DNA of 64,000 nt, taken from NCBI RefSeq assembly GCF_004010195.1, contig NC_057758.1, forward strand, positions 1,815,542-1,879,541. The letters run 5' to 3'. This stretch comes from Chiloscyllium plagiosum (Eukaryota). The stretch's first letter is position 1, and each line of letters starts with the position of its first letter. The notes under the pieces are model-generated. The model saw only the letters and a list, made by a program, of their open reading frames with translations. It ran no database searches and had not been told where the DNA came from. Of the stretch, positions 47,766 through 57,605 are shown piece after piece. A program made the position numbers and the translations under genes.

Positions 47766-48226
47766 GCTTCAGGTTCCTTACCTTTTATTGACTTACCTTT
47801 TATTTAAGCCCACGCGTTCTCAAATTTCCAAACATGGGAATATCCTTCCTCCATTTAGCCTGCCCAATGCCATTAGGATGTTAATTGATTCTGTGACACG
47901 CTGCCGATTCCTCTTAATTCGAGTGAATGCTAGTACACAAGATCCAATATTTCTTCATACCTCAGTCCTGCAATAATGTGAATAAGTCTGCTGAACCTTC
48001 GCAGGAATCCCTCAATAGCAAGAATATCCTTCCTCAGACTACAAGACAAAACTTGCTGTCATGAGTAAAGGTGTGGCCTCTTGTATGAACTGAATAAATT
48101 CAACAAGAAATCCTGACAACTGCACTCAAATCGTATTGCTGAGAAGGTCAACATGCTTTGAGCTTTTCTCAACGCCTGCTGCGCCTGCATGTCAAGTTTC
48201 AATAACTGATCCACAACGATATCCAT

Positions 48227-48664
48227 TGTAATGGAAAATTATCCATTTACTGTGTAATTAATTATCCATTTACTGTGAAATTTAAAGAGAGTGAGTCAAT
48301 TTTAAATCAATGCTGTACTGAGTTTTTAAAATGATGCTTTGATGAAGGTCTGTAGTTACCTTATCTCTGTTTGAATTCTGTAAGCATTCAACTCAACCTT
48401 GCGATAGTCGAACTCAGGGGAAGCTGGATAACTGTTATGTCTAGGACCAGTGGATGAGAGGATAACAACTTGAGTTTCCCCAGTCTCTGCCCTTGAGAGT
48501 GTGATAAGGAACGCTATAAGACAGGCGACTCTGTAAATGTTTAGGTACTCATTGCATTGAGGCTTCTAACTTAGTGTAATGAGTCAATCTTGCAAGAGTT
48601 TTAATAAAGACCCTTTCTTTGCTCTTGCTAATTATTGAGTCAAGTCGTTTTAATTTCCACGACA
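48227..48664 (+). repeat. 5' LTR (TATAA 48515-48519, AATAAA 48603-48608)
   Basis: tgtaatgg...ccacgaca repeated at 54894-55357. Confidence 0.95.
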
Positions 48665-48671
48665 GTAAACT

Positions 48672-48690
48672 TGGGGGCTTGGTCCGGGTC
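48672..48690 (+). promoter_or_regulatory. Primer-binding site, tRNA-Pro-like
   Basis: TGGGGGCTTGGTCCGGG versus canonical TGGGGGCTCGTCCGGG. Confidence 0.8.
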
Positions 48691-49168
48691 CTAGCGACTG
48701 GATGAGATTCTGAAGATTCCCAGGATGCGTAAGCACCAGCGCCTTGAAGGTCTTTCACTTCATCACGAAAGCTAAATTGGCCCTTTTGCGTGAGAGACTG
48801 GGAATCTGTGGATGACCCTAGCGCCGGGGTTTCGAATCAAATAAGGTCGGGGTAAGAGTTTGGGTTAAGAAAAGATGCATAGAGACTCATTCTCAGAGAA
48901 TAAATGCAACAGGGAAAGCGTTCAGTGACCTCTTGCGTGGTATTAGGGTAAAAGGGAAGGGGCTTGCCGTCTCAAGAGTGTTTCGGAGACAGCAAGGATC
49001 AGGGTGGTTTTAGACTTGGAACCACCACTGGCTGAGTTGGACTCGCCTAACACGTACCGGGTATGTGGTTTCTTGGTTTACGAAAACCAAAGCATTGAGG
49101 CAGTCGAGCCCAATGTGAAAGGGAATCTCCGGAGGTAAAAGCAAGTCAAAGGGAAAAGATAACGGTAC

Positions 49169-49204
<36 letters not shown>

Positions 49205-49239
49205 GGAGAGAGTAGGACACTTTTCCAGTCACCCTAAAA

Positions 49240-50815
49240 ATGGGTTCCGGCAAGAGCAAACAAAGGGAGAGTCCACACAGGACTTGGAATGGCCAACCAA
49301 AAATACAATACATGTTAAATAATTGGGGCCCGGAGTCTGTGAAGCAGTTAGAATTGTGGATTAAGGAATCCGGTTTTCTGGAGGGAGGAAGTTTTAGTAA
49401 AAGACAGCCGGAAATATTGAGGTCGAGGTTGGAGGAGAGAGAGAAGGAGAAAAGGAAGGGAAAAATAGAACCTGTGAATTGGAGTACTTATAACAAGTGG
49501 AAGGCTGAGGCTGATATCAGAGAAAGGAAATCTCAAGTAAAGGATACATCAAATTCACGTGCAAACACTAGCACACATGCAGACGCGCGCGGCAAACAAC
49601 CTAACGAAGCTGTACAATGTCTTAAGTCTGTTTCAGATCCTGATCTTGATGACTGCCCTCCGAGACCTGCAGTGGTGAAGGTTCCACATCCGCAGCCGCT
49701 GCCTCAGGGTCTGCTGGATCACCGATAGCACACCACACCCACAACGGATTGAAGCAAGAAGCTCAAAAGAAAGACGCCCACTTCAAGACGCAAAGGCATC
49801 CAAGGCCTGTTCACGATCACCCCCCGACGGATGATGAGTCAGACAGCGAGGATACTAGCGCACGATCATCTAACCAGGTAGTTCTGCAAGCCCCTATGGT
49901 TGAAGTTGCAGGTCCAGAAGGTTATCCAGAAGGTTATCCACTGGCCATGGACCATGAAGGATCCGGAAAGTGCCGATGGGCAGTTGCCTGACACACGCGA
50001 GGATGGAGGTAATAAGTTTGCTGAAGAAGTGACAAAATTCTGTACTGAGTTTCGTCGCATGTCCCATGAGATGAGACGTCTCCTGGGTCGAAAGCTAGGT
50101 GCTGATGTCACCAAAATCAAGTACACCTGACTAACTGCAAATGCCCATGCCAGAGTAGCCAACCCGCCAGCGGAGCAGAACGGAGACTTTAATGCTTTTG
50201 TTGCAGCGCTGGCAACCGCCTGTAGGGAGGCGTTTCCAGTGCGAATGGACATGACTAAAATAGCAATGTGTAAACAACGGAAAGGTGAGACCGTGTCCCA
50301 GTACTTTATGCACCTCAGTGAAGTCTATAATGCCCATAGTGGACTGAGATCACCCGACGACATAACGGCAGCAGAAATCACGCTGTATAAGGCACCACTG
50401 AGGAACAGTTTCATCAATGGAATGAAAGATGAAATAGCGAAAAAGGTAAAAGATTACCTTTTACCTGGGACACAGGTAAGCTGAATTTGAGAGAACAACA
50501 TGCGATCCATATTGAAAAATTACTTTCTTAAGAGAAGGATAAGCAGAAACTAAAGATGGAGCAGCAAGCACGTAAAGCTCAGCTTACTATGATGCAAATG
50601 GTCACCAGCCGTTGGAAGGAGGTGCTGCAGGAAGAGAGAGAGACAGAGGTGGAGGTCGCCGAAGAGGAAGAAGTCTTGGAAGTGGTTGCGGAAGAGGTGT
50701 GGGCAGCGGTAGATCCGGCGGGTGCTTTGTTTGCGGAACAATGGACCACTGGGCGAGACAGTGCCCGCATAGACAGCAGCAATCGGCCCTGGAGGCTGGA
50801 CAGCAAGGTGATTGA
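49240..50815 (+). pseudogene. gag: ERV gag (frameshifted)
   Basis: MGSGKS myristoylation-type start, GFLEGGSFS, MHR QRKGETVSQYF, CFVCGTMDHWARQC zinc knuckle. Confidence 0.9.
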
Positions 50816-53800
50816 CAGGGGAAGGCTGAGGTAGAGGTGGGCAGCCCACAAGGTATAGGTATGCCCCTTTCCTTTATGCTTGGCAATGAAAACTCGCTTA
50901 TGCTTACCTCTTCTACTAATCTGACGGGGGCACTGAGACATGTCACACCTCTACGTTGAGTGCTGAGATTGCGAAGTGTGGACAGTAAGTCCAATATCAC
51001 AATGATGCATGTAAGTCAATGCCCACCTCTATGTTATATGTGGAAGGTACATCAGTTGCCTTTTTGGTAGATACATGGGCAACATATTCAGTCCTTACAT
51101 TATGCAAGTTTAGACTTCAACACAAATAAAGATGAGTGAAAGGTTCCTGAACACAATGGGTGCATCAGGCGTCGTGGTGCGGGAGAGATTTTCCGCACCC
51201 CTATTGTGCGAAACTGCTAAAGGGGAAACTTTCCAATTCTCCTTCTTGTTATTGGAATTTTGTACTTTAAATCTGATGGCTTGGGATCTCATAGTGAGAC
51301 TGGGGTTGGACTTGGTCAGTACTCCCACGGGATTGCAGGCAATTCAAAGGGAAGGTTTACCAGTGCAGGCTGGAAAATATGAACCACGACCCCTGATGTA
51401 TGTCTATGAGTGGCGATTATGCCAGAGAGTGATAAGGCCAGAGAGTGATAAGTTCAGTGAGTGATTCACTCACCCTGGATGCAAGCAACCATGTTAATCC
51501 TATTAACACCGACTTTCGTGATGGAGATATGCTGCACTGCACAGCACACATACACCATGATGGCCCTGACAAACCATATGAGAATGAGTGGTTCAGGTGA
51601 TTGGTTAGACCAGATCACTTGTCATTGTGCTATTTTTATTGGAGCGACCACAGATGTGCAGTCAGTGTAAACTTATGTAAGGTATCTGTAACAGCAAGTA
51701 GACCCTATTTCTTTTTATGTGGAAGGCTCCACTTCTCACTTGTCACTGACAAAGGCGTCTGGTGTCAGGTGGCAGGATTTGGGACCATGGGTGCTAAAGG
51801 CACAAAGAACGAAAGGTTGGGTCTTCAGTGACGACGTGGGTGTCTGGTTCAATGCAGATATTCGAACATATAAAAATAAACTAAATTGGCTAACTTGGGC
51901 AGATAGGACAGTCCAGGTAATCCCCGCTAGCCCTGAAAAGCCAAGGGGGATAGCCTGTCGCTTCCCTAAAATAGAAGTCTCAGACCCAAGATTAAAAATG
52001 GTCCCTAATGAATTGTGGGCAAAGGGCAAACATGATGTGGGGCTCATACGGGGCTCTGAGCCCATAAGGATAACCCCGACGTCTGAGTATCGTCCTTGCA
52101 GAGCACAATACCCGTTAAAACCTGAATCCATAGAAGTAATCACTCCAGTCTTTGAATCCCTCCTAAAGGCTGGAGTGATATTCCTTCACGCGACTTTGTC
52201 AAGGTTACTGTGAGTCCCCCACCATATATAATGAGGCTCTACGCAGGAGTCTGAAGACTCTTGCTCTAACTCCGGAGTCAGCACTTTTTTGGTATGTAGA
52301 TGATCGCTTGATAGCGGCGCCAACAAAGGAACAATGTGAGAAGGATACCCTTGCGTTGCTCTGCCATTTAGCAAGGGAAGGGCACAAAACCAGTCTCACA
52401 AAGCCAGAATTTGTACAACAGGTGAAGTTCTTAGGTCACTTATTATCTGAACAAGGGAAGGCTGTTGGTCAAGACAGAGTTCAAGCAATCCAGCAAATTC
52501 CAAATTCTCACACGAAGAAACAATTACTATCCTTTTTGGGCATGTCCTCTTACTGTAGAACGTTTATCCCACATTACGCAATCCTTGAGGCGCCCTTAAG
52601 TGACATAGCCCATGGGAAAGGTTTGCAGAACCAGAGTCCGTTGCAGCGAACCCCAGAGGCCTAGTATGCCTTTGTTGAATTAAAAAAAAAGGCGCTCTAA
52701 ACTACACCTACGCTGGGGAATTCGAATCCAAACAAACCTTTTGTACAAACGGTAGATGAGAAGCGTGGCTGCATGAGATCTGTGCTGTTGCAGGATCATG
52801 AAGGAAGATTGAGGCCAGTGGCATATTTTTCAGCAAAACTAGACCCCATAGCGGCAGGATTGCCAAAATGCCTGCGCGCCGTGGCTGCAGCTGAAAATGC
52901 TGTTGTAGCGTCCAGGGGTATAGTTGGCTACAGTGAACTAACCCTACTGGTCCCACATGCAGTATCCTTACAGCTGTCCAAACAAAGGATCGCGCACATG
53001 CCAGCAGCACGTTGGCTCAGATATAATGCTGTGTTATTGGAGATGCCTAACATTACAATAAAGCGATGTAACGTCCTTAATCCTGCTAGCCTTCTCCCCG
53101 CAGAAGGAGACGGAGACGCACATGATTGTGTCGCTGTAACTAATGAAATTTGCAGCCCCAAACCAGATTTTCAGGATTCACCGCTTCAGAATCCGGATAT
53201 GGAGATTATTTTGTGGATGGGGCAGTATTCAGGAGCAAGGAGACAGGTCAGAATTGTGATGGGCATGCTGCAGTAGCTACCTATGAGATAGTGAAAGCGG
53301 GATCACTAACGTCTCTTCTGTCAGCGCAAGTCGTAGAGCTGATTGCCTTGACTGAGGCCTGTGAATTAGCTGATGGTAAGAAAGTGAATATTTACACCAA
53401 CAGCAGATGTGCATTCGGAGTTGTACATGATTTTGGAACCCTGTGGAAACCCTGTGCTTCTTGACCTCCACTAGAAAACCCATCCCATACCGTGGCCTGA
53501 TTTCTGACCTCCTCGAAGGGCAGACTCAGCAGCAAAAACAGCAGCCCAGCAGCCAACAAGTGAGCAGATTGACATGTGTATGACAAAATTTTGTACCCCA
53601 ACAAAGACGTACAGAAGTTACAGTCACAGGCCACACCAGAAGAAAAGCGTGAGTGGACGAAAGCAGGATGCAGTGTGAGAGAAGGAGTATGGTGTGGTCC
53701 TAATGGTAAACCCTGTCTACCACAATCATTGTTTCCATTCTATGCCAAACTGACACCATGTCTCAAAAGGGGGGATGTACGACAGTATTTCCGCACACTG

Positions 53801-54690
53801 GTACACTAAGGGATTTACTCATTACTCCCAGAAATATTGTGAACGTTGTGTTATCTGTGCCACTAATAATGTGGGGAGGGGAATTCAGATGTGTTAGGCA
53901 GCACACCCCAACCCCAAAAACCTTTTGAACATTTACAGATGGATTTCATTGAACTAACTCCCAGTGAAGGGAAAAGGTATTGACTGGTAATAGTTGATAT
54001 GTTTTCCAAATGGGTGGAAGCATCCCCCACATCTAAACAGGATGCCAATTCAGTAGCCAAAGCTTTGCTCACAGATAATTCAGAGATGGGGCATCCCTGA
54101 AAGTCTTATTAGTGACAACGGGACACCATTTTTCAATAATGCCTTACAGCAGATCAGTGATTACTTGGGAATAAACATGAGACAACACTATGCCTACCAT
54201 CCAGCGAATGGTCGGACAGTGGAAAAAGAAACTGCTACCCTAAAGAATAAATTTACAAAATGTTGTGAGGAACTAGGGGTGACATGGACAAAGCATATCC
54301 GATTGTGCTGGTGTACATGAGATCTAGGAGGCGAGGAAGAGCTCATCTTAGCCCTTTTGTTTGGTAGACAGCCCAACACAGGAATTGGTCCAAGACCTAA
54401 GGTAAGACAGATAACAGGCCACTGTGAGCATGAGATGTTGTGATATTGTAAAAAGCTATCTACACTTTTATCTCAAATACAAAATCAAGTGAAATCAGCA
54501 CTACCTCAACCAGCCGAAAAGAAGCGGCTCGATCTACAACCAGGAGACTGGGTAGTGGTGAAAAATTTCAGAAGGAAAAACTGGAAGGCGAAGAGGTGGC
54601 TTTCAAGTGCTCCTTCCAACACAGAGAGCAGTTAAGATTGCAGAAAGAGCCACGTGGATACATGCCTTATCATGCCGTTGACGAGTGTGA
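50816..54690 (+). pseudogene. pol: ERV pro-pol (PR, 2H, RT with deletion, RNase H, IN)
   Basis: FLVDTWATYS; QYPL; YVDD 52293-52304; FVDGA and SAQVVEL; HLQMDF, SDNGTPF, TWIHA. Confidence 0.9.
51400..51910 (+). other. 2H phosphoesterase domain in pol
   Basis: LHCTA (His 51535-51537) and SHLSL (His 51737-51739), followed by WQDLGPW. Confidence 0.75.
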
Positions 54691-54878
54691 CGTGTGAACA
54701 GGGGATGTGTGCAGGGCACACCAGAGCAAGAGACGATAACACCACAAAGCTGTTTTTTTGGATAGGTGGTGTCTGAGGAAAAGCCTGGTGTTGCCTAAAC
54801 ATTTTCTGATATATAGCTATTTTGGCTCTTTTTTTATATATATAGTTACTGTAGTTGTCCTTGTTGTCATAAAATGAC

Positions 54879-54893
54879 AAAAAACGGGGAAAA
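54879..54893 (+). promoter_or_regulatory. Polypurine tract
   Basis: aaaaaacggggaaaa abutting the 3' LTR. Confidence 0.75.
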
Positions 54894-55357
54894 TGTAATG
54901 GAAAATTATCCATTTACTGTGTAATTAATTATCAATTTTCTGCGAAATTTAAAGAGAGTGAGTCAATTTTAAATCAATGCTGTACTGAGCTTTGTAAAGG
55001 ATGCTGTACTGTGCTTTGTAAACTCTGCTGGTCACATTCTCAAAAGCAGTTAGCTTATCTCTGTTCGAATTCTGTAAATATTCAACTCGAACTTGCAATA
55101 ACCGAACTCAGCGAAAGCTGAATAACTGTTATATCTAGGACCAGGGGACGAGAGGGTAACAACTTGAGTTATCCCAGTCTCTGCCCCAGAGATTGTGATA
55201 AGGAACGCTATAAGACAGCCATCTTGTAAATGTTTAGGTACTCATTGCATTGAGGCATCTGGTTTAGTGCAATGAGTCAATCTTGTAAGATTTTTAATAA
55301 AGACCCTTGCTTTGCTCTTGCTAATTATTGAGTCAAGTCGATTTAATTTCCACGACA
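54894..55357 (+). repeat. 3' LTR
   Basis: Roughly 90% identical to the 5' LTR by eye, outside one indel block. Confidence 0.95.
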
Positions 55358-57605
55358 CCAGCTTTCGTTATCCCTCATTTTTTCCTGAAATACCCGTATT
55401 CAGATACTTGTGTGTCTTCCTGTTTTCGTGACCAAAGTGGATAACGTCATGTTGATGACATTATGTAGCCTTTACCAAGTATTTATCCATCAACCAGCCT
55501 ATCCAAGTCAGTGTACAGCCACTTAGCAGTCTCCTCACACCACCTTATTGCCATTTGCAAATTTGGAGACGTTGCGTCAAATCTTTTGTCCAAATCATTC
55601 ATGTGTTAGCTCCGGTAGTTAGCGCTGAATTCTGCAATACCCCACTCGTCACTGTCTGCCACTCTTTGCTTCCTATTTGTGAACCATTTACATATCCATG
55701 TCAATACAGAACCTCTGATACCATTAAGTTCAAGTTTGCTTACTAATCTGTTGTGTGGAACATTGTCAAAATTGTATTGAATCCCAGGTGCACAACACCT
55801 GCAGATTCGCAATTGTCCACTCTGCTGGTCACATTCTCAAAACAATCTAGATGATTTGTGAAATATGGTTTCCCTTCAGTGTGTCCATACTGACTTGGAA
55901 ATAATCTGTCACTGCATTCCATTTTCCCTCCCATTGAGATCAGTCTAAACGGTCGATAATTCCCTGCTTTCTCTCTCCTTACCTTAAAAATACGCATTGT
56001 TGTTATATTAGCTACCCTTTCGTCTATTGGAACTCTTCCAGAGTTTATCGAATGTCAGAAGATAATCAGCAATGCCTCCACTCTTTCCGGAACCAGTTCC
56101 ATAAGTATTTTGCCATGCAGAGCATCAGTCCCTGTGTTCTTATCAGATTCTAAAACCAGTAATCTTCATGAAACTATTTCCTAGTTCATAAGGGTCTCAT
56201 GCTTCAACCTCAAACGCCCCCATCCCCGCCCCAGTATTTCAGCAAGTTTTTTTCTCTTCTGCTGACTGAAGACATATCCAAAGTGTTTGTACAATGGTCT
56301 GATATCTCTGTTGTTCATTATAAATTCACCTGATTGTAACTCTAAGTCACCTACATTTGTCTTCAGCAGTCTTTCTTTTCATTCTACACATATTAATACA
56401 ATCTGTTGCGGTCATTTTCTGTTTTCTGCAAACTAACTTCCAGTTTCCATTTTTCCCTTGTGAGTTACACCCTTTGTCTTCCTTCGCTCAATTGCAAATT
56501 TCTCCCATTTCTTAGATTTGCTGCTTTTCCCGACCAGTCCTTATTTTTCACACAGTTCCTGATTTCCCTCAGGCGGTATCATTGATCTAATTTTCCTCTT
56601 TTTATTTTGCACACCAACGATATGCACAATTATTCCTTTAAATATCTACCATTACCTATCCACCATCAACCCGTTCATTATCCTTTGCTAATTTATCCAA
56701 TCTAATGTATGCATCATACCATCAAATATAGCTTTCTTTAAGTTCAGAATCCGAGTCTCACTGTCACTGTCCACATTAACGAAACATTCTGCCTTACGAT
56801 CTTTAATTTTCCTCAATGGATCTCGCATCACAATTTTGTTAATTAATGTTGTTTCATTGCACAATATCCAGTCGAGGAACACCTGTTCGCTGTTTGGCTC
56901 TTCGACATAGTGCTGGACGAAATCATCTCCACGTCATTCCAGAACATCCTGCTCCATCATATTTTGCAAGTTTGGTTAGTCCAATCAAAAGTAAACGAGA
57001 TTCACTCGTAAAGATCTCTGTGTCCTTACTGCATGCATTTATGCTTTCTTGTTTAATATCATACCCAACCTCGTACCTACAGTTTGGTTGTCATTACACA
57101 ACTCCCTGCAGTTTGTCATTTTACCTGTTGCTGTTCCACAGTTCCCCCGTACAGATTTCACATTATCCAGGCCAGTATGATTTCTTACTATTGTGTCAGT
57201 TTCCTCCATAGCCATCAACACTATCCCAACTCCATTTCGTTTCCATTTATATTTCCTGAAAATTAATTATCCTATTCTTCATCACCCTGGAGGCAGGTCT
57301 TGATGATACCAATCATATTATAATCGTTTCGAAACTTTGCTTAGAAAATTTAATCACCTTATTACAAGTGCCCCTTGCATGGAGACACAGAACCTTCAGA
57401 CATGTTTTGACGTTCATTGCACTTTTTGAATTGTGATGTATCTTTCTGCATTTTTTTCTGGGTTTTCTCAGACTTCAAATTTCCACGTTCTGCCTTCTGC
57501 TTCTGTCCCCACTTTACTTCTCTAGAACTTACTGCTTTGGTTTGAATCGCCATGCCATATTACTTGAAACTCTCCACAACAGCACAAGAATTCATTACTA
57601 GGCAA

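Follow-up and report, generated by a model that had tools for sequence, protein, structure and literature searches.

Retroviruses carry few accessory enzymes. The retroviral dUTPase, encoded in pol or pro, is a captured enzyme of nucleotide metabolism that sits in a polyprotein and is packaged into virions; its fold and chemistry are unrelated to those of the 2H phosphoesterases, which are the subject of this work. The existence of a 2H domain in fish retroviruses is already published: the 2H/CNPase domain of these viruses is credited to Mazumder 2002 (cited in PMC9503650), and PMC4977317, citing Basta 2009, attributes a CNPase to some of the epsilon-like ERVs in ray-finned fish. As far as the available text of these two reviews goes, the carriers mentioned are ray-finned fish and walleye dermal sarcoma virus, with no cartilaginous fish among them. 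Our literature search, with most subscription journals outside its coverage, found no functional test of the domain and no report from a cartilaginous fish, and the available portion of PMC4422223 does not mention the domain.

The biological role of the host CNPase has itself been termed enigmatic, and its helix alpha7 is described as unique to CNPases among 2H enzymes; this helix positions the water nucleophile, admits only water, and blocks the side where viral enzymes bind 2',5'-linked substrate (excerpts of PMC5283653). Such viral 2H enzymes, MHV NS2, MERS NS4b and rotavirus VP3, are accessory enzymes of host origin. A small soluble viral version of CNPase would make substrate and function directly assayable.

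We analysed a 64,000-nucleotide stretch of Chiloscyllium plagiosum DNA (the window), in which a decayed, env-less, epsilon-like provirus occupies positions 48227-55357 on the + strand. A preliminary description had placed a 2H insert at 51400..51910, between protease and reverse transcriptase (RT); its location between these genes stands, while its extent had to be corrected to about 51390-51925, or ~170 codons. The features of the provirus are as follows:

48227..48664, + strand: 5' LTR (TG...CA), with 397 matches and 40 mismatches (437 aligned bases) against the 3' LTR; K2P 0.098
48672..48690, + strand: PBS-like stretch, starting with TGG a few bases past the 5' LTR, which we take to resemble a tRNA-Pro PBS
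49240..50815, + strand: gag, split over several frames, with a Met-Gly start and one CCHC zinc knuckle (zf-CCHC E 1.2e-5)
51013..51389, + strand: aspartyl protease, frameshifted, with a degenerate catalytic motif, located by tblastn with fish ERV Pol proteins (match 51013-51413)
51390..51925, + strand: CNPase-like 2H phosphoesterase insert with two frameshifts and a stop, from profile matches and the predicted fold of its natural relative P0002
51535..51543, + strand: first His-x-Thr motif, L-H-C-T-A (H-C-T as in CNPase/RICH), aligned by the profile to L-H-C-T of goldfish RICH and mouse CNPase
51737..51745, + strand: second motif, His-x-Ser, S-H-L-S-L, from the profile match
51770..51805, + strand: stretch corresponding to the helix predicted behind motif 2, putatively equivalent to alpha7 of CNPase, and containing the Gly at His+15, from the P0002 model and spacing
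51960..52661, + strand: reverse transcriptase (RVT_1 E 1e-9), with L-W-A-K at the RT start, 52013, and YVDD at 52293
52701..53461, + strand: disrupted coding sequence for the RT connection domain (RT_RNaseH E 4e-8) and for RNase H (RT_RNaseH as above, RNase_H E 2.9e-8)
53573..54678, + strand: integrase, broken (rve E 2.7e-4)
54879..54893, + strand: polypurine tract
54894..55357, + strand: 3' LTR (TG...CA)

The full order LTR-PBS-gag-PR-RT-RNase H-IN-PPT-LTR was recovered, which agrees with a class I ERV layout, and an MLV/XMRV-type RT was the best PDB match of the relatives' profile (E 1.7e-80). Env is absent from the gap of ~200 nt between integrase and polypurine tract (54678-54893), where the longest stop-free stretch measures 46 codons. 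When compared with each of four relatives, ~94 RT codons are gone near 52180. The LTRs are 9% diverged, and the K2P value of 0.098, taken with the two rates quoted in the available text of PMC4422223 (2.2e-9 and 2.2e-10 per site per year), corresponds to an age of ~22 to 220 million years, which is poorly fixed because the two rates give such different values.

Within the insert, the two motifs stand 202 nt (67.3 codons) apart and in different + strand frames. The coding sequence is broken at three places: by a frameshift near 51420-51455, where a short stretch is duplicated in tandem, by an in-frame stop at 51598-51600, and by a second frameshift near 51700. The preliminary description, which had reported about 170 codons with LHCTA and SHLSL ~67 codons apart, interrupted by a stop and frameshifts, was accurate in these respects. 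The position preceding the second His, near-invariant in relatives (49/51), is altered in the provirus copy. The insert of this provirus is a pseudogene and makes no enzyme. We also observed that the motif spacing of 67 codons is ~7 codons more than the 57-61 of the nearest relatives; this wider spacing suggests a small amount of additional sequence close to the second frameshift, at 51680-51710.

The pieces of the insert, compared on their own with Pfam and PDB, gave no informative match. A word-index protein search returned 0 of 10 candidates with the C-terminal half and 1 of 1814 with the P0002 domain, and among viral contigs 12 pattern matches were obtained, with 0 confirmed. A profile built from the insert region of relatives only was then compared with all six frames of the window, and it was significant at two places only: profile positions 15-86 match 51457-51678 (50.7 bits) and positions 92-163 match 51710-51925 (47.1 bits), in colinear order. 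For a second insert-only profile, made from intact fish-ERV relatives, the halves scored 56.3 and 54.9 bits. As a control, 500 shuffled sequences were made per half, of which 416 and 412 scored, with maxima of 12.5 and 3.7 bits. Since the colinear profile scores far exceed those of the shuffles, the match of the insert is not due to chance.

The unbroken frame at 51692-52210, comprising the second half of the insert and the RT start, served as query in an exhaustive phmmer search, which returned 245 proteins at E <= 0.001; among the 150 of these 245 matches that were listed, 61 match the insert-only profile. Thirty clusters were looked up, and 16 bear names of ray-finned fishes, namely teleosts and the reedfish Erpetoichthys, 13 are without organism name and 1 has a bacterial MAG label, with none of the 30 carrying the name of a cartilaginous fish or a tetrapod. 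Going by these names, the domain is not peculiar to chondrichthyans. Two proteins, P0008 and P0165, labelled as products of Cetobacterium and Metamycoplasmataceae MAGs, are fish-type ERV Pol proteins with the domain, on contigs of 1.8-2.6 kb; their MAG labels probably reflect host contamination. The profile search added 16 further proteins, all 16 with both motifs and with the RT start after the domain, in a search that favours carriers of the motifs.

We examined the conservation of the histidines among the 150 listed phmmer matches. The His of motif 2 is present in 49 of the 51 rows that cover it (40 of these rows have the complete H-x-T/S), motif 1 is complete in 30/36 rows, and both motifs are complete in 27/35, so that the conservation expected in the preliminary description was indeed found. 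In the alignment of 26 members, which were picked after viewing their motifs, the best conserved columns include the catalytic residues (His2 26/26; His1 and Thr 23/26). Outside these 26 members, the motif 2 His is present in 23/25 rows, motif 1 is whole in 7/10 and both are whole in 4/9; the rows with damaged motifs are probably decayed ERV relics too.

The Pfam CNPase family matches 0/26 and 0/18 members, and the weak hints obtained for members come from Pfam families of the 2H type, the best being tRNA_lig_CPD (E 0.0028). An 18-row insert-only profile retrieves, by sequence alone, goldfish RICH at E 6.6e-4 and CNPase at E about 5e-3, with the L-H-C-T motif aligned, and 23 of the 24 PDB matches of the insert-only profile are CNPase/RICH. 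In the ESM Atlas, residues 15-180 of P0002 reached a best score of 0.86; the clusters matched contain tRNA_lig_CPD, in 22% and 11% of members, as well as 2H-SAK, which we treat as a lead only.

To obtain a fold, an AlphaFold model was made of P0002, a natural unbroken relative with 40% identity over the matched stretch that stands in for the broken copy, using the 26-row alignment. The pLDDT of the domain was 93-98 per block over residues 21-170. The model was compared with 48,161 PDB representative chains, and the best structural match was mouse CNPase 2xmi (Z 16.8, rmsd 3.1, 160 aligned). In a second comparison, human CNPase 1woj scored Z 17.1 (rmsd 2.3, 155 aligned), goldfish RICH Z 14.2 and the fungal tRNA ligase 6u05 Z 12.9. 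Among the 48,161 chains, the entries next to mouse CNPase were a CPDase (Z 9.8), LigT-type chains (8.8-8.9), Acb1 (7t27; 8.5) and Usb1 (7.6), with MHV NS2 and AKAP18 at 7.4, rotavirus VP3 at 6.2-6.7 and the penguinpox cGAMP PDE (9bkq) at 6.0. All 21 chains at Z >= 5 are of CNPase, LigT, AKAP, Usb1, Acb1 or NS2/VP3 type or unnamed, and among the Foldseek matches listed all are CNPase or RICH (best E 1.7e-6). The 2H fold put forward in the preliminary description was therefore recovered, at Z 16.8-17.1 to CNPase, in a structure check that ran on the relative.

In the P0002 model, strand 115-120, which bears motif 2, is directly followed by a helix at 126-137. A Gly at His+15 is present in 37/40 relatives and in the provirus copy, and the same spacing separates H309 and G324 of mouse CNPase (numbers from PDB titles). 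On the predicted secondary structure and this spacing, the helix looks like an equivalent of alpha7. An AKAP7-like fold as nearest neighbour was not borne out, given the scores of NS2, AKAP18 and VP3 against 16.8 for CNPase and the alpha7-like helix of the model. The assignment of the insert to the CNPase/RICH subfamily of the 2H domains is well supported by the modelled relative.

With the catalytic domain of vertebrate CNPase and fish RICH (2xmi, 1woj, 2ilx, 2i3e), the viral domain shares the 2H fold (Z 14-17), the L-H-C-T of motif 1, the helix after motif 2 with its Gly at His+15, and the lack of a ligase fusion. It differs in having only ~15% identity, about 160 residues against about 215 in CNPase, and motifs about 60 residues apart in viral domains (67 here) against 79. 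Moreover, it is embedded in Pol as a catalytic domain alone, without the N-terminal domain or C-terminal tail of CNP. The domains published for epsilon-like fish retroviruses appear to be of the same kind (available text of PMC9503650 and PMC4977317), and both reviews bear out the preliminary description in its statement that 2H domains are known from fish retroviral polyproteins. Because the domain was already known and this copy is dead, the main contribution of the locus is one more host lineage.

In the viral structure library BFVD, the three top matches of the P0002 model were Q2VF30_1 (unnamed) and the envelope polyproteins of WEHV1 (Q9WHI8) and WDSV (A4GTG3), with E values of 5.8e-10 to 3.3e-7 over 184-198 columns; several Acb1 models were also among the matches. 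Judging from these models, Env of the walleye viruses seems to contain this fold, whereas in the provirus it is in Pol. Its place in the walleye viruses is presumably the long Env tail.

Contigs of three organisms cover the whole insert (1377, 1086 and 1500, respectively, for the interval 51000-52300 at a likeness of at least 80%, most below 95%). Going by these sequence matches, the ERV family is abundant and common to related hosts, the summed contig depth being no copy number. The stop at 51598-51600 is read otherwise in 1204/1204, 1513/1594 and 609/760 of the contig depth of the three organisms, and the second frameshift in 122/134, 323/503 and 984/1010. Since most of the contig depth is without them, the stop and the second frameshift arose by decay in the provirus copy or in a minority of copies. 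Among the 40 of 229 difference rows listed for the family contigs, none falls in either motif. None of the sequencing runs contained half of the sampled words (best 0.32), and one RNA run, of which about 2 in 100 was read, gave 10 reads, 9 of them less than 90% alike, which says nothing on expression. Near 52180, the family contigs continue with a different sequence where the provirus RT has its gap.

The nearest named relatives are Pol proteins of ray-finned fish ERVs, with RT 50-60% identical over about 160 residues. An RT tree of 24 rows, built without the reference viruses WDSV, SSSV and ZFERV, resolves two lineages (support 97/95; 11 and 13 rows). Both hold the domain at the same place, in differing motif contexts, and for this reason the domain predates their split. 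The provirus RT falls in the 11-row set (97/95), where the named rows are teleost ERVs; with 12 of the 21 inner branches open, the tree does not separate co-divergence from cross-class transfer.

Taking into consideration the fold, the motifs and the position in Pol, we consider it probable, by analogy with CNPase, that the insert is the remnant of a CNPase/RICH-type 2H phosphodiesterase with which the ancestral virus opened 2',3'-cyclic phosphates. A broad clade of fish epsilon-like retroviruses carries this domain in Pol, at the PR/RT junction, the insert described here being a decayed remnant. From its position, the ancestral domain would have been translated with Gag-Pol, packaged into virions and probably released through cleavage by the viral protease, giving a ~160-residue protein. 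Water would be the nucleophile with which its two His-x-Thr/Ser motifs turn 2',3'-cyclic phosphates into 2'-phosphates, as the fold and the alpha7-like helix suggest. Its likely task would be the removal of RNA ends bearing cyclic phosphates, or of 2',3'-cyclic nucleotides, that host RNases had produced. This might serve either to heal the ends of viral or primer RNA or to remove danger signals; RNAs with cyclic phosphates are described to stimulate RIG-I/MDA5, NLRP3 and TLR8 (excerpts of PMC8406329). Since identity to CNPase is only ~15%, the substrate of the viral domain may have changed. The origin would most likely be a captured catalytic domain of a host CNP/RICH gene; because the fungal tRNA ligase 6u05 also reaches Z 12.9, capture from a vertebrate CNP is not proven. 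The preliminary description had offered an accessory RNA-processing or innate-immune-antagonist enzyme, and RNA processing is the better half of that proposal, with immune antagonism possible.

Other substrates have to be weighed against the opening of cyclic phosphates. The domain might have been repurposed to cleave cyclic dinucleotides such as 2'3'-cGAMP, blunting the cGAS-STING sensing of reverse-transcribed DNA in the manner of phage Acb1 or the penguinpox PDE, with which it shares the fold (7t27 Z 8.5; 9bkq Z 6.0; Acb1 models in the viral library), and a virion-borne enzyme would be on hand while viral DNA forms. We think this unlikely, as these Z scores are half those of CNPase, the alpha7-like helix of the model should keep out bulky substrates on its side, and other animal 2H esterases that were tested left cGAMP uncleaved. 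The preliminary description had instead drawn an analogy with coronavirus NS2 and rotavirus VP3; the domain would then be, like these and NS4b, a 2',5'-phosphoesterase that destroys 2-5A and so blocks RNase L. The common superfamily holds (NS2 and AKAP18 Z 7.4, VP3 6.2-6.7), but structural similarity to CNPase is much higher, at Z 16.8, and the alpha7-like helix weakens the analogy further, the NS2/NS4b/VP3 enzymes having an open 2-5A-binding side. Moreover, the domain is retained in many teleost ERVs, the hosts of which are not known to possess OAS-RNase L. OAS is present in elephant shark, according to an excerpt of PMC6307210; however, the viral 2-5A esterases have AKAP7 as their ancestor (excerpt of PMC10835031), whereas the domain is CNPase-like, and the alpha7 of CNPase blocks the 2-5A-binding side (excerpt of PMC5283653), which makes destruction of 2-5A very improbable.

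A mainly non-catalytic role is also conceivable, in which the domain would compete with host CNP or serve as its decoy, or would be a structural component of Gag-Pol; host CNP is interferon-induced and, by binding Gag, prevents retroviral assembly. Binding of Gag by host CNP is described to restrict lentiviral assembly (available text of PMC12503246 and PMC7471995), yet the catalytic residues stand among the best conserved columns of the alignment, and the CNP residue linked to restriction, at position 72 (excerpt of PMC12503246), is not part of the catalytic domain that was aligned (CNPase 160-378); we regard such a role as quite unlikely. As for the possibility that the motifs arose by chance, either in a neutral spacer or in junk acquired once the provirus had integrated, the badly decayed state of this copy and the failure of the insert halves themselves to match Pfam or PDB would fit it. 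It is refuted by the CNPase structural match, the profile matches in the window and the sequence-profile matches to CNPase/RICH, and we give it practically no credence: the colinear matches lie far above the shuffles, dozens of fish ERV proteins have the domain in the corresponding position, the fold modelled for a relative is confidently that of CNPase, and family contigs of three organisms span the entire insert.

Returning to the cyclic-phosphate phosphodiesterase, a CNPase-like domain that has kept both catalytic His in two deep fish ERV lineages, and that the walleye Env apparently contains as well, must have paid its way. We put forward tentatively, and with more doubt than confidence, that aquatic retroviruses recruited a CNPase-type enzyme at two polyprotein places (Pol PR/RT; walleye Env) to destroy nucleotide danger signals, be they cyclic-phosphate RNA ends, 2',3'-cNMPs or cGAMP. 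If true, this two-place recruitment would mean that retroviruses oppose nucleotide-based innate immunity by enzymatic means, and would offer a handle on the substrate of host CNPase.

Some minor observations were made around the provirus. A GA microsatellite occupies 49174-49203 in the leader, immediately 5' of gag, and the SINE-like repeats of the window presumably fit elasmobranch SINEs. A candidate 4-nt target-site duplication, in which 3/4 bases agree, flanks the provirus at 48223-48226 and 55358-55361. The 3' LTR carries ~27 nt that are missing from the 5' LTR, and 23 nt of these (55023-55045) recur exactly ~800 nt downstream in the flank, at 55820-55842; from the sequence, the extra stretch looks like a templated insertion from adjacent DNA.
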